A DNA stretch of 51,839 bases, from positions 1 through 51,839 of the forward strand of contig CAYRUX010000011.1 in NCBI GenBank assembly GCA_964427515.1, in the 5' to 3' direction. The stretch is from an uncultured Rhizobiaceae bacterium. GTDB taxonomy: Bacteria > Pseudomonadota > Alphaproteobacteria > UBA828. Below are positions 11,771-51,839 of the stretch, piece after piece. The stretch's first letter is position 1, and each line of letters begins with the position of its first letter. Below the pieces are notes generated by a model, which worked only from the letters and a program-made list of their open reading frames with translations, did not search any database and had not been told where the DNA came from. The position numbers and the translations under genes are program-made.

Positions 11771-11831
11771 TTTTGTTGACCAGATGGATTCTAACGTTAC
11801 ACTCTTACGTCTACGGTATACACAGGTAAAC

Positions 11832-12045
11832 CTTGCGGGAGAGATCAGTCAGATTACATCTGACGGGCACCGAAGGAGCAATTGTCCCGAAAACTCTCAG
11901 GTAAAAGGGACCGCAAGCGAATGTGACTCTGGAAAGTAGGCTTCGGGATAAGTGATTTTCCCGAAATCTCACCGAAGAGGAAAGCTGCGGGAGAGCATAA
12001 TCTGTTCTTAACCACGGTCAATCTTTCAGGTACGGAGACAGAGGG
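11832..12045 (+). promoter_or_regulatory. Tandem glycine riboswitch (two aptamers) in the gcvT leader
   Basis: Aptamer 1 is closed by P1 CTTGCGG/CCGCAAG (11832-11838 / 11911-11917) and carries GGGAGAG...CACCGAAGGAGCAA...CTCTCAGG..AAAGGGAC. Aptamer 2 carries CTCTGGAAAG...CTCACCGAAGAGGAAAG...CTTTCAGG..GGAGACAGAG. Confidence 0.9.
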
Positions 12046-12104
12046 GGCGCCGGTCAGTTCTTCGCGAATTGGGGGCCTTTTTGTGTATATGTATGGAGAT
12101 TACG

Positions 12105-13226
12105 ATGATTAAAGCGAGCAATGACCTAGAGGAGACGGGGATTACACCCCTCTACGATAGTCACGTAATCCATGGTGCTAAAATGGTTCCGTATGCTGGG
12201 GTTTTTATGCCATTAAATTATCCATCTGGGATACTCAAAGAACACATTCATACCCGTAATATGGCATCTATATTCGATGTAAGTCATATGGGACAAATTA
12301 GTATTTGGGGCGATGATATAGCAAAATCTCTAGAAAGGTTGGTGCCTGGGGACATTGTTGATTTAGCTCCGTGGGCTTTGCGTTATACTCAGTTGTTAAA
12401 TATTGAAGGTGGCATAAGTGATGATCTAATAGTTACTAATTCTGTTGACCGGATAACGTTGGTTGTAAATGCTGCTTGCAAGTATGAAGATTTAGCGATT
12501 CTGGAAGAACATCTTGGTAGTACCCATGATATTGCGATACATAAGGACAAGGCACTGATAGCCATTCAAGGTCCAGCAGCTGGATCCGTTCTTAACAGAC
12601 ATGCCCCGGCTTGCTCTAAATTAAAATTTATGATGGCAAGTACGATGACAGTTGCTGGAGTAGATGCGATTGTTTCTCGTTCTGGGTATACAGGTGAAGA
12701 TGGCTTCGAAATATCAGTTTATTCTGAATCAGTTCAACATGTTTGGGAATCTCTTGTAAGCGAACCTGAGGTATTCCCCGCTGGACTGGGGGCAAGAGAT
12801 TCCCTTAGGTTGGAGGCTGGCTTGTGTTTGTATGGGCATGATATCAATTCGACAACAACTCCAATTGAAGCTGGTCTACTATGGTCGATTAGTAAGCGTA
12901 GAAGACAAAAGGGAGGATTTATCGGTGAGGATCGAGTTCTAAGGGAAATCGAAGAGGGGCCAACTCGTCGTAGGGTTGGAATTTTACCTGAAGGAAAAGC
13001 TCCAGCGAGAGAGCATACCAAGATTATGAATCTACAAGGTGATCAAATTGGGAAAATTACCAGTGGTGGTTTCGGGCCAACTATAAATGGGCCAATCGCA
13101 ATGGGTTATGTCAAAACTGATCATTCTGCAGTTGGAACAGAGGTAATTTTAATGGTTCGGGAAAAAGAGGTAAAGGCTAGTATAGTTAAACTGCCATTTA
13201 CTGCGCATAGATACTTTTATGGTTAA
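12105..13226 (+). CDS. gcvT: Glycine cleavage system aminomethyltransferase (T protein)
   Basis: TPLYDSH...GAKMVPYAGVFMP...IFDVSHMGQI signature. I start it at ATG 12105 (GGAGA Shine-Dalgarno 5 nt upstream) rather than the track start 12069, which lies in the riboswitch expression platform. Confidence 0.93.
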   Translation: MIKASNDLEETGITPLYDSHVIHGAKMVPYAGVFMPLNYPSGILKEHIHTRNMASIFDVSHMGQISIWGDDIAKSLERLVPGDIVDLAPWALRYTQLLNIEGGISDDLIVTNSVDRITLVVNAACKYEDLAILEEHLGSTHDIAIHKDKALIAIQGPAAGSVLNRHAPACSKLKFMMASTMTVAGVDAIVSRSGYTGEDGFEISVYSESVQHVWESLVSEPEVFPAGLGARDSLRLEAGLCLYGHDINSTTTPIEAGLLWSISKRRRQKGGFIGEDRVLREIEEGPTRRRVGILPEGKAPAREHTKIMNLQGDQIGKITSGGFGPTINGPIAMGYVKTDHSAVGTEVILMVREKEVKASIVKLPFTAHRYFYG

Positions 13227-37693: not shown

Positions 37694-38965
37694 TCAGAGC
37701 TGCCACCTCAAAAATTTAGAAGGGATAGGATGTTGTTTCCACATTCCGGGTATATCGGCAAGCAAGCCACCTTCTTTAAGAAGTCCAAAGACTTTTTCGA
37801 TTGGTAACTGGACGAAACTATCATGACCGACAGCACCAACCACGCAGTCATAGGAATGTTTAAAGTCGATACTTTCGATTAACTTAATACTATACAAGGC
37901 TTCAGCTTCTTCATGGTTCGCCAAAGGATCATACACGTCAACAATGTGCCCAGCTTTTTCTAGCAACTTAACTATATTTGCAATTAGAGAGTTTCGTAAG
38001 TCAGAAACGTTTTTCTTAAAGGTTAAACCCAAAACAAGAATATGGCTATTTGGTGCCACGATTTTATTAGTTAGGTGTGAACTGATGAAGGCACTCATAC
38101 CATCGTTGAGGTACCTGCCTGCTAGTATTACTTCGGGTCTATGTCCTGCTTTTTCGGCTCGATAAGCCAAATAATAAGGATCCACCCCTATGCAATGTCC
38201 TCCGACTAAACCTGGGGAAAAATTAAGAAAGTTCCATTTAGTGCTGGCGGCTTCCAATACATCCGCACTTGATAGTCCAAGCTTGTGGCAGATTTGCGAA
38301 ACTTCATTAACAAATGCGATATTTATATCGCGTTGAGCATTTTCTATTACCTTGGCTGCCTCTGCAGTCCGAATATCCGGTGTATTGTATATGTTATTAC
38401 AATTTATTGGCGCGTAGAGTTCAGAAATTTTTTTAGTAGTTTCTTCCGTATCCCCAGCAACTATTTTAGTGATATTTTTTAGGGTATGTTTTGTATCACC
38501 AGGGTTAATACGTTCAGGTGAGTAACCAACGTTAAACCCTTCTCGCCACTTTAAGCCAGATGAGATTTCAAGTTCAGGCACGCATTCTTCTTCAGTAAGG
38601 CCTGGCCAAACGGTGCTTTCATAGATTACAATACTTCCTTGTTTAAGTTGTGTTCCAACCGTACGCGATGCCGATAAAATTGCTGTCAGGTCAGGCTTGT
38701 TTTGGGTATCTACGGGTGTCGGTACCGTGATAATATAAAAGTTCGCATGCCTGATATCTTCAGGGTTTGAGCTCCATGTTATATTTTTCTTCGTAAGTGA
38801 TTCACTGGAGGCTTCATTATTTCGGTCATAACCTCGGATTAACTGAAGAATTCTTTTTTCTTGAATATCATAACCTATTACCCTGTTACTTTCAGCCATT
38901 GCGATTGCAAGAGGTAACCCAACATAACCCAGGCCAATAATGGCAACTCTATTTATGTTTGACAT
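37694..38965 (-). CDS. Nucleotide-sugar 6-dehydrogenase (TviB/WbpO/CapL-like, UDP-N-acetylhexosamine or UDP-glucose class)
   Basis: IIGLGYVGLPLA Rossmann motif and catalytic Cys in GGHCIGVDPYYL, at 423 aa. Confidence 0.85.
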   Translation of the reverse strand: MSNINRVAIIGLGYVGLPLAIAMAESNRVIGYDIQEKRILQLIRGYDRNNEASSESLTKKNITWSSNPEDIRHANFYIITVPTPVDTQNKPDLTAILSASRTVGTQLKQGSIVIYESTVWPGLTEEECVPELEISSGLKWREGFNVGYSPERINPGDTKHTLKNITKIVAGDTEETTKKISELYAPINCNNIYNTPDIRTAEAAKVIENAQRDINIAFVNEVSQICHKLGLSSADVLEAASTKWNFLNFSPGLVGGHCIGVDPYYLAYRAEKAGHRPEVILAGRYLNDGMSAFISSHLTNKIVAPNSHILVLGLTFKKNVSDLRNSLIANIVKLLEKAGHIVDVYDPLANHEEAEALYSIKLIESIDFKHSYDCVVGAVGHDSFVQLPIEKVFGLLKEGGLLADIPGMWKQHPIPSKFLRWQL

Positions 38966-39152
38966 ATCTGGATGTTCTCCGATTTGCAGATGAACTAATG
39001 TAAGCTATTCGCCTGAAACGCCTCTGCTGTCAAATTTGAATTAGTTTATTTTTAGTATCATTATGTTTATATGTTTAGTTGTGAAGAATGTTGTATCCTG
39101 AAGGATTTAAAGCGATAAAAAGGATACTGGCCACCTGCCACACTGAGATACG

Positions 39153-40133
39153 ATGAGCATTTTTATTACTGGAGCCGCTGGTTTCATAGGTTATCAGACA
39201 TGCAAAGCCTTACTTAAGCGTGGCCGTTCCGTAGTCGGTATAGACAATCTAAACAATTACTATGATGTAAGGCTCAAGAAGGCACGGCTTTCTCAGCTAA
39301 AAAAATATAATAATTTTACGTTTATTCACGTCGATATCTCCGATAATGACCTGCTTTCTAGAAAATTACCGAATTTAGATGATGTATCAAGTGTCTTACA
39401 TTTAGCAGCGCAAGCAGGCGTAAGGTACTCCTTGGTTAATCCAAAAGCATATGTGGAGGCAAATATTGTTGGGCAAATAAATATTCTCGAGTTGTGTCGT
39501 CAAATGAAAAATTTGAAACATTTAGTGTATGCGAGTTCTAGTTCTGTTTATGGAAATAGTACTCAGGTGCCTTTTTCAGAAAAACACTCTGTTGATAAGC
39601 CTGTTTCTCTCTATGCTGCAACTAAAAAAGCCGATGAGTTAATGGGCTATTCATATGCGCATCTATTTGGAATTCCGATGACAGGACTACGCTTTTTTAC
39701 AGTGTATGGCCCCTGGGGAAGGCCTGACATGGCAGCTTTTATTTTCGCAAAAGCGATATATGAGGGAACACCCATCAAAATATTTAATAATGGTGATATG
39801 CGAAGAGACTTTACCTATGTAGATGATGAGGTTCGGGGAGTTCTTTCGGTGTTGGCCTCTCCACCGGTCGCTGATGGGAGGAATCCACCCCACCGCATTT
39901 ACAACATAGGAAATAACCGTTCGGAACCTCTTCTAAGATTTGTTGAATTACTAGAGAGAGCAATTGGACGATCCGCTCACAAGGAACTTGTTCCTATGCA
40001 GGCAGGTGACGTGAGAGAAACTTGCGCCGATATTGAGGCCATTTACGCAGATCATGGTTTCAAGCCAAAAACTAGTATTGACGAGGGAATTCCAAGATTT
40101 GTTAAGTGGTTTCAAAAATATCATGGATTTTAG
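39153..40133 (+). CDS. NAD-dependent nucleotide-sugar (uronate) 4-epimerase, SDR family (TviC/Cap1J-like)
   Basis: TGAAGFIG, SSSSVYG and YAATKKADE (YxxxK) motifs at 326 aa. Confidence 0.85.
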   Translation: MSIFITGAAGFIGYQTCKALLKRGRSVVGIDNLNNYYDVRLKKARLSQLKKYNNFTFIHVDISDNDLLSRKLPNLDDVSSVLHLAAQAGVRYSLVNPKAYVEANIVGQINILELCRQMKNLKHLVYASSSSVYGNSTQVPFSEKHSVDKPVSLYAATKKADELMGYSYAHLFGIPMTGLRFFTVYGPWGRPDMAAFIFAKAIYEGTPIKIFNNGDMRRDFTYVDDEVRGVLSVLASPPVADGRNPPHRIYNIGNNRSEPLLRFVELLERAIGRSAHKELVPMQAGDVRETCADIEAIYADHGFKPKTSIDEGIPRFVKWFQKYHGF

Positions 40134-40140
40134 CAATATC

Positions 40141-42177
40141 CTAATGTTGTATGACGGGAGACCCCAAATGATAAACTAATGCGGTATCAAGAAAGTTTAC
40201 ATCCAGACTGCCCTCTCGTGATACCAACCTTCCAACACTTAATTCTAATGATAGGTTCCGCGATATTTTATATGATAAACCACTAGCGGCTTTAAAAATC
40301 AAAGCACTTGAGCTATCTACACCACCTCCACCACCGGCACCAATTAAAGTTTCAAGAAATAAGTTAGCCGAGCCAATATTTGGGCTCATAGCTCCCACTC
40401 CCCAGAGACCTTCTGAATAACCACCTGCCCCACCGGCATAAGCACTTAGAGCCTGACCAGTTAGGTACCACCAATTTCCTGGCATCCAATCGAATTTTGC
40501 TCCCAAAAGTTCCATATCTTTGGAAGCAGAACTTTTTCTGGGTGCGTCAAAATACCATTGGTGGATGGGGCGTATGCGCCACCTTTCTGTGCGTATTTTG
40601 TCATTGGGTGAAAGTAATGTCCCTTTTTTATCAAGGGATAAATTTTCCGTGACGTAAGAAATGTTAAATCCAACATAGGGCGCTTCAAAATTACCATCCG
40701 GAGCGGTCATATAACCGCCATCGCCAATTATGCTTAATTCTCGAGCGAGGCGGTATTCCAGACCAAGATTGGCTCGAGTAACAAATCCTCCGCCCGTATC
40801 AACAGCCCCACCTCCAGCACCGCCGAAGGTTATACTTGGCAAAATAGCCAACCGATCATTCGTCGTAAGTCCTTGTCGCAATCCTATTCCACCAAGTAAT
40901 TCAGCATATCCACCGACATTACCTGAGAATGCACCCGCCGATTCCAGATCAATAAATAGATGTTTGTTTAAAAAGTAAGCATAATTTATTCCGACGACCC
41001 CTATTGTTTTGTTTAAGGCGTTGCCAGAGACATTTTTACTATCAGTGGTAGGATTATAAAACCTGCTACGTATCGAAATATGAGAGCGATGTCTGCTTAC
41101 CTTGGATAAGGAGGAGTCAAAATAGTTATCGGCGCGTTCGATTGAAGTAAACCAATCCTCGGTTGCTGACTGAAAATTTGTATCTAGCTGTAGGCTAATT
41201 GAGTCACTCTCAATATCACCGTTTGGAAATTCAACATGGCTGTAGCCGAGCCCTAGGGAATATTGACCAAAATCATAAAACAACCCGACATAAGGCCTTA
41301 ACATCAGACCTCCACCTTGAGGTGCGTCACCGCCGCCTCCCGCACCAACATAAAAACTAGTATCAGCATACAGTCGTTTGAGTAGAGGGAATTTTAGCCC
41401 GGATGTAAAACCGCCTGTAAAGAAGCCACCTCGTTCTCCAGTTGCGGCGCCAAAGGCATTAAGTCCACCATAAAACCAAGGATAAAACTCTTGGAAATAT
41501 CCAAGCCCATACAACCCCATTTGCTCGCCGGCGACTGGCATTTCAACTTCTTCAAATGAGATGCGAAATGTACGACGTTTCCAATATGACTCCAATTCTC
41601 GTACATTTTTATGATAATTATTTGTTGATGGCGGCTCCTTATTGGTTTCATAGTTATTTTGCTTAAATGCTTTGGTTGGACTCTTTGTTTCTCTGGTTTT
41701 ATGGACAACCCGATTAGTATTTGCCAGTTTGCTAGATATTAATTTTTTATATCCAGGAAAGGTGTTGACTATTGTCTTGGCAATATACTGACGATGTGAT
41801 CTTCCTAAATTTATAGCGGTTTCAATTATTATATCTGCATGGTCAGGATAATTTGCTAATGCTGAAATTACCTGAGAACTAAACTTCGTCGCAGCAGCAC
41901 GACGAGAAAAGCGAGTTGACGTTTTTGAGATTTCCTCTTTGCGTGCGTTAGTTCCATTGTCCACTATTGATTTAAGTACTAGCCTTGGTAAGGCGGTATC
42001 CGCAGATAGTGCTGCGTGATTATATCCGATACTTAGCGATAAAATGCCTAAAATTATGCCAAACACCAATAATAGCATTCGAATATGCAATCGTTTCTGA
42101 AAACATACTACTCGATTTGTGTAATCCCCTATGGGTCTAATTCTCATAAGTGGCCCTGAATGCGTTTGTTGCTCCAA
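40141..42177 (-). CDS. Unrecognised secreted protein with three glycine-motif repeats; probable outer-membrane beta-barrel protein
   Basis: Hydrophobic signal-like segment MLLLVFGIILGILSLSIGYNHAALSA. Three modules of about 135 aa share G-[AG]-G-G-G-x(2,3)-D-x(2)-G-G...GL.Y...S. Candidate starts are TTG 42177, ATG 42147 and ATG 42078. Confidence 0.6.
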   Translation of the reverse strand: MEQQTHSGPLMRIRPIGDYTNRVVCFQKRLHIRMLLLVFGIILGILSLSIGYNHAALSADTALPRLVLKSIVDNGTNARKEEISKTSTRFSRRAAATKFSSQVISALANYPDHADIIIETAINLGRSHRQYIAKTIVNTFPGYKKLISSKLANTNRVVHKTRETKSPTKAFKQNNYETNKEPPSTNNYHKNVRELESYWKRRTFRISFEEVEMPVAGEQMGLYGLGYFQEFYPWFYGGLNAFGAATGERGGFFTGGFTSGLKFPLLKRLYADTSFYVGAGGGGDAPQGGGLMLRPYVGLFYDFGQYSLGLGYSHVEFPNGDIESDSISLQLDTNFQSATEDWFTSIERADNYFDSSLSKVSRHRSHISIRSRFYNPTTDSKNVSGNALNKTIGVVGINYAYFLNKHLFIDLESAGAFSGNVGGYAELLGGIGLRQGLTTNDRLAILPSITFGGAGGGAVDTGGGFVTRANLGLEYRLARELSIIGDGGYMTAPDGNFEAPYVGFNISYVTENLSLDKKGTLLSPNDKIRTERWRIRPIHQWYFDAPRKSSASKDMELLGAKFDWMPGNWWYLTGQALSAYAGGAGGYSEGLWGVGAMSPNIGSANLFLETLIGAGGGGGVDSSSALIFKAASGLSYKISRNLSLELSVGRLVSREGSLDVNFLDTALVYHLGSPVIQH

Positions 42178-42589
42178 ATAATTTGAGGCTCTTTAATAAT
42201 TACAGTAAATAGTATTGTCGTATCTCGCAAATGAACCGTGAAGTATGATTATTATCATAACATTCGGATTTTAGAAAACGACCCTTTGTGTGTGGTTTAT
42301 ATTATAATTTTATGTATATTAACTCGTGAGAAACTCAAGGTAATATTTTTAACAGCGTTTCAATTGCTCAAATATCGACATATGTTAAATTCGAAACGGT
42401 ATATTTGCTCGGTTGGAAATTTATTACCCTCTTACCTTTGTACTTTCTGGTATATACTCATAGAATTATCATAGCGTACTAGGAGATTAAGGCATCATTG
42501 ATATGGCGATAGTTTTTTTGGGTTGCGGAGGCAGAAATGACAAGAACTGAATGCTCGCGGGAGTATTATGTGGCCCTAGGGAGAATATG

Positions 42590-45355
42590 ATGCATTTACG
42601 GCGTTGTGCTGGTTTGGTTCTAGCTGCCTTAATGTGCTATGGCGGGCTGATGCAAGAATCTAGTGCGCAGGATGCAGTTTTACAGCAGCTGTTTCAGGAG
42701 GAAATCAGGGCTCGCGGTATTGGGCCGATTGCTGATCAACCCATTGTAGAACCGTTAGAACCGTATCCTGTTATTGATTCAGAATTGACTGAATCAGAAT
42801 ATCGGAGCATTACCCAGCGACAGAAATTGGAAGAGTTGCGACCAACTCCACTAGAGCTGGATTTCTCGGCACGGGCGGGAACTGACCTCAAGCAATTTGG
42901 GTACGAATTGTTTCATACTCATAAAACTAGATTAGTTGCGACTAATCTTGGAGGAGCACCGGATGATTACGTATTGGGTGTTGGAGATTCGATAATTGTA
43001 ACTTTTCGGGGTCAACTCAGAAAATCTGGATCCACGAAGATAGATTCAGAGGGAAGACTTGTCCTAAAAGACCTGCCTCCCCTCGTAGCAGTTGGTAGAA
43101 CCTTTGGTGAATTAAGAAAGGAATTAGAATCATTAACTGAAGAAACTCTTCTTGGATCTGAAATATATATATCCCTTGGGTCTGTCCGCCGGATCTCTAT
43201 CTTGGTGGTTGGAGAAGTTCGAAATCCAGGGGCGCAGGCACTGCCAGCGTACTCGACAATTATTGACGCTATAGCTTTGTCTGGAGGTATAAGAAAAACG
43301 GGATCTCTTCGAAATATACAGGTTGTTCGGGGTGATGAGATTTTCTGGTTGGATTTATATGATCTAATTTTTATGGGTACTCTGAGTAGAGACGTAGTGT
43401 TAAGAAATGGCGATCGAATAGTGGTTCCAGCTATTGGTGAAACCGTTGCTGCTGCGGGTTGGGTGAATAGGCCTGGAATCTATGAACTTAGAGTAGGTGG
43501 TAAGACTCCCACGCTCGATGATATGCTAAAATTTGGAGGGGGTGCCGTAAGACCCACTGGAAACAGACTTTTACATATAACATTAGAAAAAGATGGGCGT
43601 CAGCTAGTAGAAGAGCGAAAACAAGCAGAGGAGGCAGATATTCGAGCAGGCGACATTCTTTTAGTAGAGTTGGGTCAAAACATTCAACATGGTAATGTTA
43701 GGGCAATGGGACATGTCTCAGTGGAGGCAAGACGATCATTGGCCAGCGCACCAACTTTGAGAGCGCTTCTAGCGGACGGTTCAATACTTGAAAATAATCC
43801 GTATTTATTATTGGGCGCAGTAGAAACTACAGACACTAATACGTGGACCAGGAGGTTATATCCTGTAAATTTGCGTAATGTTTTTTCCGGTTCGGTAGAT
43901 TATCGCTTGCATGATAAGGACGCAGTCCTTGTATTTAGTGCGTCAGATATTGAATATCTAATGAGTGACGATGTGCAGCAATTTCTTGTATCTGAAAATC
44001 CTCAAGATTTGGAAACAGAATGTGTGGGTCTACGGGCGCTAAAGAAGGCGATAGTTTTAGGAACGCCGGGTAAGTATGATGCTGCTGTGTTATACAAGGA
44101 AAAGAGCACACCAAAACATCAAGAACGATTAGAAGATCCGGTACATTTTGTTGGATACAAACGGTTGGTATTGGAGGAAAGGCGAGTTGCCTTGTCGGAA
44201 CGTCAAGCAAAGCTCGCAGAAATGAAGGAAAGAATAAGATTAGATCCTCTACAATCTGATGAGTTAGTCAAAGTTCTTTCTGAAAAAGAATCACCCTGCC
44301 CCGAGCTGTTCGAGCGTTTTCCTAAAGCTTTGCCGTTTTTACTAGAACATACTATGATGTTACAGGGTGAAATAAGATCGCCCGGAATTTATCCAATCAC
44401 GAGTGGAACTGATCTAGCGGCTATCGTTTCGGCAGCGGAAGGGCTCTCGCGAGATGGCGATGTATCCCATGTTGAGATTATTAATCGTAGTTCTCGCTCC
44501 GGAGCAACGAAGAGTAAAGGAGCTCAGGATCTGTCGCAGACGGGCCTGGCATCAGTACAACTTGAGCCAGGTGATACAGTGCAAATTGGAAAAAGGTTTC
44601 TAAGCAGGTCCTCTGGTAGTGTGAGTATTTTGGGAGAGGTCAGGCACCCTGGTAGATATACTATAACCCGTGGCGAACGTATGTCTGATATTATTGTTCG
44701 GGCAGGCGGTTTTACTGCAGAGGCATATTCTGATGGTGCAGTTTTTACGAGGCAAAGTGCGAAGAAAAGGGAGAGACTTGGGTACCAACGCTCAGCTGTT
44801 GAACTCGAAAGATCTATTGTGACAGCCTTGTCAAGCAAGCGCGGCAGGGCAGCTAGGGCTGGGGGGGGGATTGAAATTGTCAGTCAGCTAGTAGACACTC
44901 TACGTTCAATTGAACCAGTTGGACGTGTTGTTGTTGAAACAGACCCTTTGGTCTTGAGCCGCTCGCCTGAATTAGACATATTAATGGAAGCAGGGGATCA
45001 GTTATTTATTCCTAAGCGGCCAAGCTCGGTAACCGTATCTGGTGAAGTTCTGAACCCTGGCGCGATTCAATACGCAGCAGGCTTAAAAACAGAACATTAT
45101 ATTGAGATGGCAGGAGGCGTCGGACAAAGTGGTGACGACAACAAGGTGTTTGTGGTATTTCCAGATGGGTCTGCAAGGCCGGTATCCATCTCCTATTGGA
45201 ACTATGATTCGAGGGAAATTCCGCCAGGAAGTACAGTGGTTGTTCCTCGAGATGTTACGCCCGTCGATTTTGTATCGTTAGCAAAGGACATAACCCAAAT
45301 TTTTAGCCAGCTCGCTATTCGAGCGGCCTCACTTGCTGAACTTGAAGATGATTGA
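42590..45355 (+). CDS. Giant outer-membrane polysaccharide export (OPX, Wza/KpsD-family) protein with multiple SLBB domains
   Basis: Signal peptide MHLRRCAGLVLAALMCYGGLMQESSA. Poly_export-type motif DDYVLGVGDSIIVTF. At least five SLBB-type starts: GEVRNPG, GWVNRPG, GEIRSPG, GEVRHPG and GEVLNPG. GGGAGA Shine-Dalgarno 5 nt before ATG 42590. Confidence 0.85.
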   Translation: MHLRRCAGLVLAALMCYGGLMQESSAQDAVLQQLFQEEIRARGIGPIADQPIVEPLEPYPVIDSELTESEYRSITQRQKLEELRPTPLELDFSARAGTDLKQFGYELFHTHKTRLVATNLGGAPDDYVLGVGDSIIVTFRGQLRKSGSTKIDSEGRLVLKDLPPLVAVGRTFGELRKELESLTEETLLGSEIYISLGSVRRISILVVGEVRNPGAQALPAYSTIIDAIALSGGIRKTGSLRNIQVVRGDEIFWLDLYDLIFMGTLSRDVVLRNGDRIVVPAIGETVAAAGWVNRPGIYELRVGGKTPTLDDMLKFGGGAVRPTGNRLLHITLEKDGRQLVEERKQAEEADIRAGDILLVELGQNIQHGNVRAMGHVSVEARRSLASAPTLRALLADGSILENNPYLLLGAVETTDTNTWTRRLYPVNLRNVFSGSVDYRLHDKDAVLVFSASDIEYLMSDDVQQFLVSENPQDLETECVGLRALKKAIVLGTPGKYDAAVLYKEKSTPKHQERLEDPVHFVGYKRLVLEERRVALSERQAKLAEMKERIRLDPLQSDELVKVLSEKESPCPELFERFPKALPFLLEHTMMLQGEIRSPGIYPITSGTDLAAIVSAAEGLSRDGDVSHVEIINRSSRSGATKSKGAQDLSQTGLASVQLEPGDTVQIGKRFLSRSSGSVSILGEVRHPGRYTITRGERMSDIIVRAGGFTAEAYSDGAVFTRQSAKKRERLGYQRSAVELERSIVTALSSKRGRAARAGGGIEIVSQLVDTLRSIEPVGRVVVETDPLVLSRSPELDILMEAGDQLFIPKRPSSVTVSGEVLNPGAIQYAAGLKTEHYIEMAGGVGQSGDDNKVFVVFPDGSARPVSISYWNYDSREIPPGSTVVVPRDVTPVDFVSLAKDITQIFSQLAIRAASLAELEDD

Positions 45356-45383: not shown

Positions 45384-46478
45384 ATGAGTACCGAAAACGA
45401 CAAACCTGAGATTAAATCATCCGAAGCGCGGGGTGAGATGGCAAGATCGACCAGTTCTAACGATAGTTCAGACAAGATAGCTATGGATAAGTTAGAAGGT
45501 AATTCTGAACTTATCCAGAGCCGAAACTCAGACTTACAAACCATTGTTTCTCGAGAGGTGGATTCAGACTTTTATAGGTTTGTCTGGATTGTTCTGAGAG
45601 GCTGGTGGATAATTCTCATAGTTGTAATATTGTCGGTTACCTATGCTGGTTATTCACTGACGAAACATGGGCCGACATACAAAGCGCATATGCTTTTACG
45701 AGAGGTTACCAAAGGTACAACACAATCTATTCAAATGCCTACTAGAATGGCAAACTTAGCAGCGAACTTTGGGATTCCGGTAGGACCTTCAGGGTCAACT
45801 AATTTTAAACGTTTAACGCTTTTGTTTGGTACCACCCCTTTTGCGGAATATCTTGATAGTAAATACGGATACATTAAACGCGTATATGGCGGAAGTTGGG
45901 ATGAGGAGAATAAGAGATGGATAGCTCCTACTGGATGGCAAGTTGATTTGGATAATTTTTTTCGGCGCTTTGCCCCAATTCCTGAATGGCAACCTCCAAG
46001 ATCACAAGAGCTAGCAAATTATATTAGAAGCAATATTTCTATAGTTCCTTACCCTGCTGCTAAGGATATATTCAGACTAGAGTTTCGACATCCAGATCGT
46101 GATTTTGCTTTGGAGTTTTTACGAAACGTATATTTTGAAGCTGAACAAGAGCTTTCTAGTCAGGAAATAAAGCGTGAGTCTAGTTTGGTCAGTTATTTTA
46201 AAACTCAATTAGCTAAGGTATCCATAAGTGAATATCGAGATGCGCTATTTTTTGTATTAGCGGGTCGAGAAAAGAGGCTTATAGAATTACAATCCGGAGC
46301 ACCTTATGCAGCTATAGTTATTGCACCACCATCAGTTTCTGAAAAACCTTCCAAACCAAATGTATTTGTTCGACTGGTTCTTGGTGGGATTATAGGTTTA
46401 GGTCTGGGGATTGTTGTAGTCTTGATCGTTGCAATATCTAAAAGGATAATTTCTCAACGTCCCTCGAAATTAGCTTAA
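45384..46478 (+). CDS. Wzz-like polysaccharide co-polymerase (PCP) without a kinase domain
   Basis: Two TM helices (WIILIVVILSVTYAGYSL and LVLGGIIGLGLGIVVVLIVAI) flank a periplasmic region. A Pro-rich segment (APPSVSEKPSKPN) precedes TM2. Confidence 0.75.
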   Translation: MSTENDKPEIKSSEARGEMARSTSSNDSSDKIAMDKLEGNSELIQSRNSDLQTIVSREVDSDFYRFVWIVLRGWWIILIVVILSVTYAGYSLTKHGPTYKAHMLLREVTKGTTQSIQMPTRMANLAANFGIPVGPSGSTNFKRLTLLFGTTPFAEYLDSKYGYIKRVYGGSWDEENKRWIAPTGWQVDLDNFFRRFAPIPEWQPPRSQELANYIRSNISIVPYPAAKDIFRLEFRHPDRDFALEFLRNVYFEAEQELSSQEIKRESSLVSYFKTQLAKVSISEYRDALFFVLAGREKRLIELQSGAPYAAIVIAPPSVSEKPSKPNVFVRLVLGGIIGLGLGIVVVLIVAISKRIISQRPSKLA

Positions 46479-46616: not shown

Positions 46617-47456
46617 TTGAATATTGTTATTCTTACAGGGGCGGAACTGCGTCACGATTTTGTCCGGAAATCTCTAGGAATTGTAGATGATATTCATGTT
46701 CAGTTAGCGTACTGTGAGGATACATGCCTAGAAAGGTCCATTCTGGATCAGTGTGATGAAAACAAAGAGCGTTTGGCTCATCTGGAAAGGCGTTCGCAGT
46801 CCGAGAAAGACTTTTTCTCGGCTATGCACAGGTTTTGTCCGGATAGAACGAGCCCGATTTTAATAGAAAAAGGGGAAATTAATAAACCGGTTCACATTGA
46901 CAAAGTCATTTCTCTAAATCCAGATCTAATAGTTGCTTATGGATGTTCGATTATTGAGGATCCTTTGCTAGACGCTTTTGATGGTCGGATCCTTAACGTC
47001 CACCTTGGTCTTTCTCCTTATTATCGGGGTAGCGGAACCAATTTCTGGCCACTAGTGCATAAAAAGCCAGAATTTGTTGGAGCAACTTTCATGTATATGG
47101 ATCGTGGTATTGATACGGGTGAGGTAATTCATCAAGTGCGAGCTAGAATATGCGCTGGTGATTCCCCCCACCAAATAGGTAACAGGCTTATTTTTGACAT
47201 GGCTCTGGTGTACGGCGAAATAATCAGACGATATGAAAGTTTAATAAAAATGCGACAATTAGTGACACCTGCAGACGTGCATTACTATAGGCGGAAAGAT
47301 TTTACTGAAGAATCCGTCGTGAGTTTACGAAATAACTTTTCGGCGGGCATGATAGAAAAGTATATTGACGAAAGGAGTGAGCGCTGTGAAGCCGTTCCGA
47401 TTTTAGTTAATTCTGTAATTGCACCCGTAGAGAAATTGTTGGAGGAAGCACTGTGA
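46617..47456 (+). CDS. Formyltransferase-family protein (probable sugar N-formyltransferase)
   Basis: LNVHLGLSPYYRGSG (N-x-H and the SLLPxxRG-like motif), with IDTG Asp 37 residues after the His. TTG start. Confidence 0.7.
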   Translation: MNIVILTGAELRHDFVRKSLGIVDDIHVQLAYCEDTCLERSILDQCDENKERLAHLERRSQSEKDFFSAMHRFCPDRTSPILIEKGEINKPVHIDKVISLNPDLIVAYGCSIIEDPLLDAFDGRILNVHLGLSPYYRGSGTNFWPLVHKKPEFVGATFMYMDRGIDTGEVIHQVRARICAGDSPHQIGNRLIFDMALVYGEIIRRYESLIKMRQLVTPADVHYYRRKDFTEESVVSLRNNFSAGMIEKYIDERSERCEAVPILVNSVIAPVEKLLEEAL

Positions 47457-48385
47457 AGGCTGTCATGTATCATTATATACGGCCGGAACCAAAAGGCCTC
47501 CCTTATTTAAGCTATTTGCATTTAGATGATTTTCGAAGGCAGTTAGATTTCTTTGAGCAAGAGTATGGGTTTATTTCAAAAGAAGATTTTTTAAATTCTG
47601 TAAATACTGGGGATCCAGCAGGACAAGGAATTATCTTAACCTTTGATGATGGTGTGGCTGATCACTATGATTATGTATTGCCGGAATTGAGAAGTCGGAA
47701 CTTATGGGGAATATTTTACATCCCAACAGGGAGTTATCAAAACGGTGGATCTTTGCTTGATGTTCATAGGCTACATTTACTGTTGGGCGCATTTGGCGGG
47801 GATACAATCGTAACTGGGTTGAATAATGTTATAGCTCCTGAGATGTTGAGCCAAAGTCATTTGCAAGAGTTTCGGGGGTTAGCGTTTGATAGACAGGACA
47901 ATGAAGCTAATGCAGCGTTATCAAAATTGATACTAAATTATTTTGTACAGTATGAGTATCGAGAAGAGATAATTGATCATCTAATGAAAAGATATTTTAA
48001 TGGAATGCGATCTGAGGCCGGGAATTATTACGTAACTTCGGATCAAATTAAAGAAATTCAGGATTATGGAATGATTATTGGCAGTCATGCCGTCAGTCAC
48101 CGTATTTTGAGTAAGTTAACGGTTGCAGAACAAGCAGAAGAAATTAGAAGTTCGTTTGATTTCTTGGATGGAGTGACAGGAGGGTTAACAACTCGCACTT
48201 TTTGTTTTCCCTACGGTGGGAATGACTCGTTTAATGTTGAAAGTGAACGTTTGCTAGAAGAAGCAAAGTGTCAATTTTCTTTTAAAGTTGCACCAAGAAG
48301 CATCACTGCCAAAGACTTGTCAGGTCGACGTCAGGCATTGCCACGTTTTGATTGTAATAGGTTTAGGTATGGTCAAGTAAGATAA
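47453..48385 (+). CDS. NodB-fold polysaccharide deacetylase/deformylase family protein
   Basis: LTFDDG, GSHAVSH (H-x3-H) and FPYGG motifs. The GTG start overlaps the formyltransferase TGA (GTGA), with GGAGGA 6 nt upstream. Confidence 0.8.
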   Translation: MKAVMYHYIRPEPKGLPYLSYLHLDDFRRQLDFFEQEYGFISKEDFLNSVNTGDPAGQGIILTFDDGVADHYDYVLPELRSRNLWGIFYIPTGSYQNGGSLLDVHRLHLLLGAFGGDTIVTGLNNVIAPEMLSQSHLQEFRGLAFDRQDNEANAALSKLILNYFVQYEYREEIIDHLMKRYFNGMRSEAGNYYVTSDQIKEIQDYGMIIGSHAVSHRILSKLTVAEQAEEIRSSFDFLDGVTGGLTTRTFCFPYGGNDSFNVESERLLEEAKCQFSFKVAPRSITAKDLSGRRQALPRFDCNRFRYGQVR

Positions 48386-48709
48386 TTTCCTCGATGAAAT
48401 TATAAGGTGTCAGGTATTTACCGATAACTATCTATGTAATGTTACAAAACCCTGACAAAGTTTCAGAAAAATAGGTTCAATTGCCACTGATAAAGTCGTA
48501 TTACAAAGCAGCAAATGTGTTTTGCCATTAGGGAGTATAGCTTTAATTGGCTTGTGAAAAGAGGGGCGCTGTTTTTGGGTTATTTTATCGATCAGCTCAA
48601 CTAGGCGAGAAATTCTGTAAACTAGCTGTGACCACGAGTAGAAGACCGTTGTTTATGCCCGGGGCACTTGAACCTACTTCGTTATGCGTTGTAATTCTGG
48701 CAAATTAAA

Positions 48710-50401
48710 ATGTCTACGAGCGGCTTCATGAAATTACTAGATAAGCCTATTTTTTTTATTAAGGAATTGATCGATCTTTCGGGTTGGTGGGTTGTTATTG
48801 TTGGCGCACTGGGAGTATTTGCTGGTATAGGCGTTGGTCTTATTGAGATAGCATTCAGTCTTAGTCTTGAACAATTCCTCTCATCATATAATTTAGTTTC
48901 ACGAGATGAGGGTTTTGAAAGTTGGTTGCCAGAAATTTTTGATCCCTTAGTGCTTGTTCTAGTAATTGGCGTACTTATGACAGGATTTAGGTATCTTGCT
49001 CTTCTATTGCCTCATACAGTTCTTCAATTATTTTTAAGGCGCGTGAGATATCTCGTAAGTCATGAGACATTAAGTGTGAGTGGTGAGGTTTCATTGTTGT
49101 CTGTCGCCAACTGTAACAATATAATGTCTGTTCAAGCGCCTGGGGCAGCTGATTTTTTGAGTGCTATAACAACAGCGCTTATTTCAATAATCAGGTTAAT
49201 TCTTCTGCTTGGCGGGATTTTTGTACTCTCCACAGAGTTGAGTTTAATTTCTATTGCATTAATTTCCGCGTTTGGCTTGCCAACAATCATATTTAGAAAG
49301 TTATTTGTACGTTTATCTAGATTATTTTATAAGTCTGCGGCTGATTATTCGGAAAATCTGGTTAGAAGCGTCCGAAATGTTGTGTTTCTTAAACTCAGTG
49401 GTCAAGTGCAAACTGAGAGAAACAAATTGGATCAGTACACGTCTGATGCTTACAAACACGTTCAACGGTATAACGTTGTTTTCTATGGTAACATGGTATG
49501 GCCCGGTTTATTAAGTGTTTTTGTAGCAGTTCTGATTGTTGTAATTAATTTTGAGTATCAATTTCAGGAGGAGTCTGCACTAATTCCCTTCTTATACTTG
49601 TTGAGCCGTATCGCTTCAGCTCTTAGCGAATTTACGGGAAGCTATGGAAAATACCAGCTTTGCAAGCCAATGACCGCCAATCTAATAAAGTATAACCCAA
49701 TACTATTACGAGAAACAAAACTCGCCAATCAGGAAACAAATAAAGACATTTTGAAACCCAATAAGTTTGTGGCTAAAAATTTGAGCATTGGTCGGGGTGA
49801 GGTACTGTTCGAAGGCATAGATATATTGTTAAAGCAAGGAGACGTTCTTTTAATTAATGGGAGGTCAGGTTCGGGTAAGACTACATTTTTGTATACAATC
49901 CTTGGACTAATACGTCCTATTGAAGGACAGGTATTATGGAATAATGTAGATATTATAAACATAAATCAAAAGATGTTTAGTGCCCATGTTTCTTATTCCG
50001 GATCAGATCCCTACTTGTTTGACGGAACAATTGAGGAAAATATTCGCCTCGGGACAAATACTGAGACTTACAAATATAAAGATATACAAAAAGCTATGAA
50101 GGTTTCCGAATGTGGGTTTATTGACCAGATTGAGGGTAATTTAGCTTATTTTTTGAAAGAGGGTGGTGAGGGTATTTCGGCTGGGCAGAAACAAAGAATA
50201 TCGTTGGCGAGAGCATTGTTAAAGAAACCAAGGGTACTGTTTTTGGATGAGGCGACCTCTAATGTCGACACAGAAACAGAAAAAAGAATATTTAGTAATA
50301 TGCGTGACATGTACCCAGAAATGATGATTATTTCGATCACGCACCGCGATACAACTGCTGAATTTGCAACTCAAGTGTTAAATATGGATCCTCCAAGTTA
50401 A
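48710..50401 (+). CDS. Fused TMD-NBD ABC exporter (MsbA/PglK-like half transporter)
   Basis: N-terminal multi-helix membrane domain. Walker A GRSGSGKTT, signature ISAGQKQR, Walker B VLFLDEATS, and H-loop ITHR. Confidence 0.85.
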   Translation: MSTSGFMKLLDKPIFFIKELIDLSGWWVVIVGALGVFAGIGVGLIEIAFSLSLEQFLSSYNLVSRDEGFESWLPEIFDPLVLVLVIGVLMTGFRYLALLLPHTVLQLFLRRVRYLVSHETLSVSGEVSLLSVANCNNIMSVQAPGAADFLSAITTALISIIRLILLLGGIFVLSTELSLISIALISAFGLPTIIFRKLFVRLSRLFYKSAADYSENLVRSVRNVVFLKLSGQVQTERNKLDQYTSDAYKHVQRYNVVFYGNMVWPGLLSVFVAVLIVVINFEYQFQEESALIPFLYLLSRIASALSEFTGSYGKYQLCKPMTANLIKYNPILLRETKLANQETNKDILKPNKFVAKNLSIGRGEVLFEGIDILLKQGDVLLINGRSGSGKTTFLYTILGLIRPIEGQVLWNNVDIININQKMFSAHVSYSGSDPYLFDGTIEENIRLGTNTETYKYKDIQKAMKVSECGFIDQIEGNLAYFLKEGGEGISAGQKQRISLARALLKKPRVLFLDEATSNVDTETEKRIFSNMRDMYPEMMIISITHRDTTAEFATQVLNMDPPS

Positions 50402-50711
50402 CGATAATGACTTAACTTTTAGTCTAGAAAATCAATATGGTACAACAAATCATTAAAGAAACCTGACGTCTTTTTGGCGGGAAAGAATTATTTCTTTGGT
50501 TGATCTAAGGCGCTTAACTATCACTCATCGGTATTTAGAACCAAGTGGTTCTATTAGGTGAATTTACTATATTAACGTATACACAAAAGTTTTCGTATAG
50601 CTAGAACGTGATAATATAGCCATGCCCCAATTAGCCATAGAAATATCGAATATAGGTGTATTAATGACCCGAACTTGAAAAAATATTCCCTTGCACTACA
50701 TCTCGGGTAAA

Positions 50712-51656
50712 TTAATTAACATTTAAATTAATTCCATATATTTTATCCAACTTTTCATTATCCGCCGCGTAGAAATTCTTAACCCTTTCGATAGTGAAAG
50801 GGGTCGCCACCGCAGTCATTTCATTAGACTCCGTAAGATAATTTGAGAATTTTTCGGTCAATGTCCGAGGAAAATATTTTGAAAGCCTAGTGTTCGGTAG
50901 AAACCAATTTCTGAGTTTGACGTAGCCGTGTTCACGTACGGTAGCTCTTCTATTTTCATTATAATTAGCCACCTCTGAAATTGATTCATCAATCAATGTG
51001 GTTCCAATAAAATTGCAAAGACGATTTAATATATTATTGGGGTCTTGTTTGAACTCTTCAAAAGAATAAATAAAAATGTCATCTTTGGAGACACTCTTTA
51101 CATACATTGATATCATTGATTGAAAATTGAGGCAGTCTAAAAGAGATTTATAACAATAACGAAAATTTATTTCCATCCACTGATCAAACGTTGGCGCCCA
51201 TTTCATTCTTTCGGTGCCAAAATTATAGATCCGTAGGTGCTCGGAACGGTGAGACACTAAATATAGACTCTTTAACAGCTCCATTTGATTTCGCACACAG
51301 TATATGATTTTGACATTATCAAAAATAGCCTGATACCGATGCAATTTCGTTGCCGGAGTCGGTCCGGTGAATACAGATATACTTTCATCAGAAAACAGAG
51401 CCGTATTAGAGTTATTTTCTCTACACAACTTATTTATCAAGTCTTTAATTGGATTTAACGCCGTATCAAAATCCATATTTTGCGTTTCAATATTTCGAAA
51501 TACTTGTGCCAAATCTTCAGTAAAATATCTGTCATCACTACCCGGTATTATATATTTTCCGAGATACAGTACCTCCCTAAGATTTGGAAAAAAGCGCATT
51601 TGGAGTGTTGAAGTGGCAGTTTTAGGGGCGCCAATATGAAGCACAGCATCTACCAT
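50712..51656 (-). CDS. PAPS-dependent sulfotransferase family protein
   Basis: 5'-PSB-like loop HIGAPKTATSTLQ and a 3'-PB-like CVRNQMELLKSLY. I prefer ATG 51656 (GGAGAG Shine-Dalgarno 7 nt upstream) to the track's TTG 51680. Confidence 0.75.
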   Translation of the reverse strand: MVDAVLHIGAPKTATSTLQMRFFPNLREVLYLGKYIIPGSDDRYFTEDLAQVFRNIETQNMDFDTALNPIKDLINKLCRENNSNTALFSDESISVFTGPTPATKLHRYQAIFDNVKIIYCVRNQMELLKSLYLVSHRSEHLRIYNFGTERMKWAPTFDQWMEINFRYCYKSLLDCLNFQSMISMYVKSVSKDDIFIYSFEEFKQDPNNILNRLCNFIGTTLIDESISEVANYNENRRATVREHGYVKLRNWFLPNTRLSKYFPRTLTEKFSNYLTESNEMTAVATPFTIERVKNFYAADNEKLDKIYGINLNVN

Positions 51657-51839
51657 CTGCAACTCTCCTCTGCGAAACAATCTATCCTAAAGTTCTACCG
51701 GTCAAAATCATTATAAGTGCCATTTCTTGAGTCCATGGTCTGGTTCGATAACCACTGGGATGGCGAATTATTTATATGGTCGTTCCTTTGGACGTCAACC
51801 GAAAAGAAATAAGTATTTAATATCAATGGATTAGACTCT

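Follow-up and report, generated by a model that had tools for sequence, protein, structure and literature searches.

On the reverse strand of a 51,839-nucleotide stretch of contig CAYRUX010000011.1, from an uncultured Rhizobiaceae bacterium (hereafter the window), we identified a gene for a secreted integral outer-membrane protein that is built from three homologous eight-stranded β-barrels of the OmpX/Ail/OmpA type, that is, an 8-8-8 (“poly-8”) multi-barrel protein. The gene diverges from one encoding a long OPX protein (for the export of polysaccharide at the outer membrane), and its homologues recur close to genes of this kind in divergent lineages. We tentatively propose, with a confidence that falls a little short of even, that the protein belongs to an OPX export module as an accessory subunit providing docking or anchoring at the outer membrane, and not as the conduit through which the polymer passes.

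Self-BLASTP of the protein revealed no internal repeat, and profile-profile comparison was required to detect it. With hhalign, the sub-profile of module 1 matched those of modules 2 and 3 (E=5.6e-7 and E=5.6e-9, respectively), and the latter two matched each other (E=1.6e-14). An earlier reading of the nucleotide sequence and its translated open reading frames (ORFs), here called the sequence-only reading, had placed three tandem modules at about aa 204-332, 367-508 and 533-671; these were recovered, with boundaries refined as listed in Table 1. Its further observations, namely a secreted 678-aa product, transmembrane β-strands, a non-repetitive region of about 100 aa (aa 60-155) and a K/N/T/P-rich linker, are borne out by the signal peptide, the structural model and the domain limits described below.

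The full-length AlphaFold2 (AF2) model, for which an alignment of 57 diverse family members served as input, reached a mean predicted local distance difference test score (pLDDT) of 83.8 and a predicted TM-score (pTM) of 0.72, with most of the core above a pLDDT of 90 and 24 core strands arranged as 3 x 8. Glycine makes up 15% of the core. Both inter-barrel linkers of the model are substantial (22 aa, and 12 aa at aa 515-526 between barrels 2 and 3), and neither is a 2-residue turn. The predicted extracellular loops are only 5-9 aa long and Gly-rich, and it is there that the most conserved motifs of the protein (RGGFF, GAGGGGxAxQGGG and FPNGDI) are found. Foldseek returned 363 matches in the PDB for the full model at E<=1e-3, all of them outer-membrane β-barrels. 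Against barrels of 14-22 strands the TM-scores were 0.11-0.23, with root-mean-square deviations of 17-28 Å, which is not expected of one single large barrel; against the 18-stranded Occ/Opd barrels they did not exceed 0.28.

The topology was tested by mean-field direct coupling analysis (DCA) of 432 unique family sequences (effective number, Neff, 204), in which the scores of antiparallel ladders were summed for pairs of strands. Ladders of sequence-adjacent strands had a mean of about 2.6, compared with a background of 0.90 +/- 0.35. The strongest ladders between non-adjacent strands were s1-s8 (3.52, z=7.6) and, in second place, s17-s24 (3.24, z=6.8), which indicates that barrels 1 and 3 are closed by these seams, each of the two on itself. 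The contacts of a 24-stranded barrel, in contrast, were at background (s8-s9 z=1.5, s16-s17 z=0.15, s1-s24 z=0.9), and 74% of the top 50 couplings fell within barrels, compared with 32% expected. The DCA ladders, together with TM-scores of about 0.2 to large barrels, led us to reject a single 24-stranded barrel. Of the two architectures offered by the sequence-only reading, a barrel of about 24 strands or three small barrels, it is therefore the second that stands, on the combined evidence of DCA, AF2 and Foldseek. A symmetric pseudo-trimer packing of the three barrels was also considered and is not claimed: the top inter-barrel ladders (s3-s12, s4-s19 and s8-s24) are only extremes of the background, and the symmetry-related s11-s20 lies at background.

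The DCA closure of barrel 2 is weak (z ~1, likewise with widened strand windows), which counts among the points against our interpretation. Barrel 2 was nevertheless accepted as 8-stranded because it is homologous to module 3, because module 2 modelled alone by AF2 reached a pLDDT of 93 (pTM 0.84), and because of its Foldseek matches. These comprised the designed transmembrane β-barrel 6x9z (TM-scores normalised to query and target, TMq/TMt, of 0.53/0.72), Ail (0.60/0.64), OmpX (0.57/0.63) and the transmembrane domain of OmpA (0.53/0.52), with NspA and OmpW also among the best, all of them closed 8-stranded barrels. The modelled fold of module 2 is that of a closed 8-stranded antiparallel barrel. 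The sequence-only reading saw no resemblance to OmpA, which is wrong at the level of fold, since each module is an 8-stranded barrel of the OmpA/OmpX/Ail type according to Foldseek and relatives of the protein match PF13505.

Conservation across the family, based on an alignment of 30 homologues, is restricted to a core of 480 aa (aa ~199-678), and the N-terminal part has a narrower distribution. The true start of the gene is probably the ATG at 42147 (Met11) and not the TTG, because the closest relative (P0002; 668 aa, 76% identity) starts at the equivalent of Met11. The signal is of the Sec/signal peptidase I (SPI) type as read from the sequence: the n-region is basic, the hydrophobic h-region (MLLLVFGIILGILSLSIGY) has 19 residues, and residue 59 is the last of an ALSA motif. 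In the AF2 model this part is a helix (residues 17-57) of low confidence. The periplasmic helical domain that follows is common only to the closest clade in the alignment (P0002-P0006 and L006), and it had no match in the PDB or Pfam. Two short ORFs of 82 and 104 aa lie within the gene on the other strand or in another frame (40730-40978, + strand, and 41394-41708, - strand), and are most likely spurious.

Neither Pfam nor NCBIfam yielded a family for the protein at E<=1; it had no significant match among PDB sequences, and was negative for PF06082 (GfcD/YjbH) and PF14052 (Wzi) at the same threshold; PF06082 was likewise not matched by any of eight relatives. The view that it belongs to no recognised family has thus held. 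A match to EtuB at E=0.004 was taken as chance, and the PEP-CTERM-associated outer-membrane families (EpsL, TIGR03016), considered in view of the DUF3485/EpsI gene in a Thiobacillus operon described below, gave no NCBIfam match. The OMP_b-brl family PF13505, which the protein itself does not match, was recognised in three stretches of the relative P0053 (31.7 bits, above the cut-off of 28.7) and was approached by P0079 (23 bits, under that cut-off), while several relatives carry a precomputed PF13505 match.

The family is large. A word-indexed search returned more than 524 close homologues, mostly “hypothetical proteins” of about 561 aa from marine metagenomes and Prochlorococcus, and when 1.84 billion representatives were searched exhaustively with a profile, 925 clusters (50% identity) were identified at E<=1e-3, of which 388 at E<=1e-30. 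A typical member has about 500 aa, consisting of a signal peptide and the core, and all members are annotated as “hypothetical protein”. Among species-representative genomes, the family was found in Rhodospirillaceae and “Rhizobiaceae” metagenome-assembled genomes (MAGs) (72% and 64% identity, respectively), in about 45 Prochlorococcus genomes including MIT 9302, in Verrucomicrobiota, Sulfurimonas, Sulfuricurvum, Sulfurospirillum, Thiobacillus and Hydrogenophilales, and in Chromatiales, other Gammaproteobacteria, Nitrospirota and Planctomycetota; Desulfuromonas versatilis is likewise a carrier. A gene for a ferredoxin-dependent bilin reductase directly follows the homologue in two contigs from MAGs that carry the label Gammaproteobacteria (L009 11877-12593; L045 11756-12472); this homologue is 56% identical to the window protein, like the Prochlorococcus copies, and the taxonomic assignment of these bins seems doubtful. 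The long Synechococcus-like members P0053, P0079 and P0009 show sub-threshold matches to LptD_N (PF03968, 14.8-18.8 bits) and LptC (PF06835) over their N-terminal ~130-180 aa, an extension that stands where the window protein has its helical domain. To judge from these matches, a β-jellyroll lipid-binding domain may be fused to the 8-8-8 core in these three proteins.

The neighbouring OPX protein has 934 aa. Its residues 149-297 match domains D1-D2 of Wza (2J58, E 2e-11) and its residues 781-920 match GfcC (3P42, E 8.8e-7). Class 2 of the OPX proteins has been defined by non-overlapping homology to Wza and GfcC and by a Poly_export-SLBBn-GfcC architecture (Saidi et al. 2022, PMC9603273). Because the two matches do not overlap and the domain order is Poly_export, four SLBB and GfcC_C, the window OPX is by its sequence a Class 2 protein. 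Its terminal helix aligns with the C-terminal helix of GfcC itself and no sequence extends beyond it, so that it appears 2A-like, with no separate Wza_C segment. All partner OPX proteins found near members of the family share an SPI-type signal with no lipobox cysteine and a conserved terminal β-grasp followed by an amphipathic or hydrophobic helix. A profile made from the C-termini of distant partners matched the Wza β-grasp domains D2/D3 better than GfcC (E 1.3e-8 and 1.4e-4, respectively).

The OPX genes were detected by screening loci of family members first with the window OPX and afterwards with an OPX profile; look-ups in further lineages added L082, L083, L085 and L086. A long OPX (773-1008 aa) was found 0-6 kb from the homologue in the window and in 20 further loci, which represent about ten lineages within Alpha-, Beta- and Gammaproteobacteria, Campylobacterota and Verrucomicrobiota, with 35-57% identity between the barrel proteins. 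At least three arrangements occur, the two genes being tandem, divergent, convergent or dispersed. The gene order of the window is conserved in a close relative (L004). Among loci with an OPX of 773-940 aa, the OPX gene directly follows the homologue, downstream and in the same orientation, in L052, L054, L056, L057, L059, L060, L062, L063, L064, L065, L074, L076 and L077, is convergent in L051 and divergent in L010. In L082 the homologue is followed by an 821-aa OPX and then by a 315-aa polysaccharide co-polymerase (PCP); in L083 it is convergent with a 310-aa PCP and a 918-aa OPX; in L085 a 924-aa OPX and a Wzz protein lie at 4.5 kb, with UDP-glucose dehydrogenase (UGDH), glycosyltransferase family 2 (GT2) and epimerase genes upstream; and in L086 a 1008-aa OPX and a PCP lie at 3 kb, beside an initiating transferase. 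Homologues of the PCP-like protein of the window follow the OPX in L051, L063 and L074, and short Wzz/GNVR proteins do so in L082, L083 and L085. In Thiobacillus the homologue heads an operon that continues with OPX, PCP, DUF3485/EpsI, Wzx, methyltransferase, GT4 and GT2 genes, and here, as in several Gammaproteobacteria, the gap to the OPX gene is 0-200 bp. In the Prochlorococcus single-amplified genome (SAG) L039, the homologue is convergent with genes for a Wzz-type PCP and a 382-aa OPX. OPX genes are rare in genomes, and their recurrence beside this family in some ten divergent lineages and in several arrangements therefore indicates a linkage far beyond chance.

On this basis, we propose a three-gene export module that would consist of a short PCP, a long non-lipidated OPX of the Class 2 type and the 8-8-8 protein. 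The polymer would pass through the OPX oligomer. The triple barrel would be too narrow for a conduit; it would serve as a membrane-embedded site that holds the end of the OPX protein (the terminal β-grasp and amphipathic helix, GfcC-like in the window) at the outer membrane, and it might also organise the exit site. Such docking would resemble the binding of multi-barrel GfcD by GfcC, and also the lipid anchor required by other OPX proteins for oligomerisation at the membrane. No channel wide enough for a polysaccharide exists in 8-stranded barrels of the OmpX/Ail/OmpA type, and the protein is unlikely to be the conduit for that reason. GfcC binds GfcD, and β-barrel partners have been predicted for Class 2 OPX with a fused GfcC module (PMC9603273); for a minority of these proteins Saidi et al. 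reported GfcD, YjbH or Wzi in the vicinity, and no other such neighbours (PMC9603273). In other OPX proteins membrane anchoring is obtained through lipidation, and the oligomerisation of Class 3 OPX depends on anchoring (PMC12819527). The docking role is plausible because GfcC binds GfcD and because the partner OPX has no lipidation anchor of the kind needed elsewhere.

Several observations weigh against this proposal. The export role is drawn from gene neighbourhood, and no OPX was found within 10 kb in about 44 of the 45 Prochlorococcus loci, nor in some 12 other loci, where the neighbours are housekeeping or unrelated genes. The co-occurrence with multi-SLBB OPX genes raised by the sequence-only reading is thus recurrent in about ten lineages and fails in these loci. 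In Prochlorococcus MIT 9302 (L013 8035-9144, 13893-16398) the neighbours encode an inverse-autotransporter β-domain protein and two OprB-like porins, and in Prochlorococcus marinus XMU1406 (L001/L002 1-9600) the homologue lies beside a mobile-looking island and sulfotransferase genes. There is no obvious symmetry match between an OPX octamer and a three-barrel monomer, no barrel-barrel packing is supported by inter-barrel DCA ladders, and the 26-residue amphipathic terminal helix of the window OPX (mean hydropathy 0.8) might itself span the membrane. The copies with no OPX nearby could be taken to mean that the family is a general structural or housekeeping outer-membrane protein, an OmpA/OmpX-like barrel fused threefold, and that its proximity to OPX genes reflects only the clustering of envelope genes; the porins, the inverse-autotransporter barrel and the housekeeping genes among the neighbours, as well as the great abundance of the family in marine metagenomes, would fit such a role. 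We regard it as unlikely, given that a single OPX type with a short PCP recurs in about ten lineages at barrel identities down to 35% and in several arrangements, and given the operonic organisation with closely spaced OPX genes in Thiobacillus and several Gammaproteobacteria. Within the XMU1406 island, a phage integrase gene is accompanied by one for a Prim-Pol/PriCT_2/AAA_25 protein and by numerous small ORFs.

In group 1 capsule loci the gene order is wzi-wza-(wzb)-wzc, and the order of the 8-8-8, OPX and PCP genes mirrors it. The protein might accordingly be viewed as a surface factor like Wzi (a protein discussed in PMC9601211), which would bind the polymer after export and keep or arrange it on the cell surface without being involved in export. 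The position of the most conserved motifs on the predicted extracellular loops would agree with this, as would the fact that Ail and OmpX bind ligands by their outer rims, a complex of Ail with a heparin analogue (3qrc) being among the module 2 matches. This role is nevertheless distinctly unlikely: homology to Wzi was not detected (no PF14052 match at E<=1), short Gly-rich loops form a poor lectin surface, and family members are also present in genomes with no polysaccharide locus nearby. An involvement in lipid handling appears improbable to us; here the small barrels, in the manner of PagP, OmpW or the gated GfcD barrel, would take up a lipid-anchored polymer by its lipid end and let this end pass laterally into the outer leaflet. 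Polymers of the ABC-exporter type, to which the cluster of the window belongs, are commonly lipid-anchored. A model of GfcD depicts it as exporting lipid-anchored chains through a lateral gate (PMC11494523), and the LptD_N or LptC matches of some long relatives and the Desulfuromonas copy that adjoins PqiABC point in the same direction; the Thiobacillus-type loci, however, are Wzx-dependent, and the LptD_N and LptC matches are under their cut-offs. No OPX lies near the Desulfuromonas versatilis homologue (L081 10487-14163), whose convergent neighbour is a lipid-transport operon of the order PqiA-PqiA-MlaD/PqiB-ABC_trans_aux (PqiC). Even less credit can be given to the protein as the membrane-spanning channel of a composite OPX/β-barrel translocon, whether the passage were a barrel of about 24 strands or lay in the small barrels. 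Composite translocons do exist (PMC9601211, PMC9603273, PMC12819527), and the OPX encoded next to the protein, with a GfcC-homologous terminal helix and no Wza_C extension, may lack a pore of its own; but the 24-stranded barrel is rejected by DCA and AF2, the modules are closed Ail/OmpX-type barrels with no open channel, and the known composites pair 18-stranded barrels with OPX of <=280 aa. The sequence-only reading had proposed the protein as the integral outer-membrane partner of the OPX in such a translocon: the partnership is supported by context in some ten lineages, and the pore is not, the barrels being too narrow and the OPX not of the short Class 3. Finally, docking could be part of a more far-reaching arrangement, which we think has only a slim chance of being correct, in which the 8-8-8 family would be the missing and obligatory third subunit of Class 2 (GfcC-ended, non-lipidated) OPX systems, its barrels receiving the terminal β-grasp and helix of the OPX and then either forming a composite exit with the OPX helices or inserting the polymer's lipid end in the outer leaflet.

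The features of the window that bear on the protein are collected in Table 1. The AT-rich control region and the absence of a lipobox from the OPX, both noted by the sequence-only reading, were found as described, and a sigma-70 scan of positions 42178-42550 detected no convincing promoter and no strong consensus. The dehydrogenase and epimerase pair next to the protein also flanks its homologue in L004 and lies near it in L085. With a UGDH-family gene and an epimerase/dehydratase gene at 37694-40133, and a formyltransferase and a deacetylase gene in the cluster at 46617-51680, the window holds a set that resembles ArnA/ArnD, and this suggests that the cluster may make a formylated amino sugar. 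The same cluster includes a sulfotransferase gene near the window end; sulfotransferases or adenosine 5'-phosphosulfate (APS) kinase are also encoded near family members in L001 and L082. Elsewhere in the window we found genes for an electron transfer flavoprotein-ubiquinone oxidoreductase (ETF-QO) and for TPR-ispE, which agree with a probable origin of the window in a marine alphaproteobacterium, and a tandem glycine riboswitch (two RF00504 aptamers, 60.8 and 33.8 bits) at 11826-12051 on the forward strand, just upstream of an ORF at 12069-13226.

Table 1. Features of the 8-8-8 protein gene and its surroundings in the window.
Feature	Position	Strand	Basis or remark
Gene of 8-8-8 multi-barrel outer-membrane protein, 678 aa from TTG start	40141..42177	-	ORF call, homology, AF2
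Probable ATG start and Sec/SPI signal peptide, aa 11-59, cleavage after ALSA	42001..42147	-	P0002 alignment, sequence reading
Clade-specific periplasmic helical domain, aa 65-162	41692..41985	-	AF2 helices, pLDDT 80-90
Low-complexity K/N/T/P-rich linker, aa 163-195	41593..41691	-	AF2 pLDDT <50, sequence
Barrel 1, aa 199-338, 8 strands, motifs GAATGERGGFFTGG and YVGAGGGGDAPQGGGLMLRP	41164..41583	-	AF2; DCA closure s1-s8
Inter-barrel linker with short helix (349-359), aa 339-360, 22 aa	41098..41163	-	AF2
Barrel 2, aa 361-514, 8 strands	40636..41097	-	AF2 of the module alone; Foldseek
Barrel 3, aa 527-677, 8 strands	40147..40599	-	AF2; DCA closure s17-s24
UDP-glucose/GDP-mannose dehydrogenase family gene (-) and NAD-dependent epimerase/dehydratase gene (+)	37694..40133		Profile scans
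AT-rich divergent intergenic region shared with the OPX gene	42178..42550		32% GC, compared with 40.5% in the window
OPX, 934 aa: Poly_export, 4 SLBB, GfcC-like C-terminal module	42551..45355	+	Pfam; SPI signal, no lipobox
Short PCP-like protein, 364 aa, two transmembrane segments	45384..46478	+	Profile scans; weak Wzz/GNVR matches
Formyltransferase, polysaccharide deacetylase, fused ABC exporter	46617..50401	+	Same order in L004

For the open question of how the outer membrane is reached and traversed by long, non-lipidated OPX proteins of the KpsD/GfcC type, and how they are attached there, this family represents a concrete candidate. Both β-barrel partners of OPX systems and poly-8 multi-barrels, as a predicted class, were already known. 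What is new is a large and unannotated family (about 925 clusters in many phyla) of OPX-associated outer-membrane barrel proteins with an 8-8-8 architecture. No function has been described for the poly-8 multi-barrel class, and the proposed role, if true, would be the first to place one of its proteins in a functional context. For marine microbiology, a conserved surface protein of Prochlorococcus is flagged. Should the family be an obligatory third subunit, this would amount to a new translocon architecture made from barrels that lack a channel, operating also in Prochlorococcus, among the most abundant organisms on Earth.

With regard to known systems, the closest functional analogy is offered by GfcD/YjbH (PF06082) of the E. 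coli group 4 capsule, which is also a multi-barrel outer-membrane protein encoded in a polysaccharide locus, and whose partner GfcC shares homology with the module at the C-terminus of the window OPX. The architectures differ, as GfcD combines a FapF-like barrel of 12 strands and a laterally gated barrel of 12/13 strands with a middle domain, compared with 8-8-8 here. The Wzp/EpsX porins of Myxococcus (WzpX/EpsX, WzpS/ExoB and WzpB) resemble the protein in that an outer-membrane barrel gene stands beside OPX and PCP genes and the barrel has been proposed to act with the OPX. Each of them, however, is a single 18-stranded PgaA/AlgE-like channel and not three 8-stranded barrels, and their partners are short lipidated Class 3 OPX of about 190-280 aa, whereas those of the 8-8-8 family are non-lipidated and have 773-1008 aa. 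The composite translocons described so far pair single 18-stranded barrels with OPX of <=280 aa (PMC9601211). Among the features of Wzp porins, proximity to an OPX gene is present in the window protein, while a single 16-18-stranded channel barrel and a short OPX partner are absent, and no similarity in sequence or fold to these porins was found beyond that of a generic β-barrel. Wzi (PF14052), a capsule-anchoring lectin, is likewise encoded immediately upstream of the OPX gene and its barrel is not the conduit, but it consists of one 18-stranded barrel with a helical plug and has no sequence match to the protein.

At the level of the single module, the fold is shared with Ail, OmpX, OmpA and NspA (TM-scores of ~0.5-0.64), and some relatives match PF13505; those proteins are single barrels with longer, variable loops, whereas here three barrels are fused and the very short Gly-rich loops are invariant. 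In overall architecture the protein is closest to the poly-8 multi-barrels reported by Solan et al. (2021, PMC8346858), which are defined by at least two complete, self-closing 8-stranded barrels with substantial linkers, as also found here, and which likewise carry their 8-stranded barrels in tandem on one chain, joined by linkers of 12-22 aa, with co-evolution of the barrel-closing strands. The poly-8 superfamilies described in that study are from Bacteroidetes, with no link to OPX reported for them, and all but one of its families are confined to a single phylum, whereas the present family spans many (PMC8346858). An 8-8-8 “MB-family 007” is also listed there (PMC8346858), and might correspond to the family described here.

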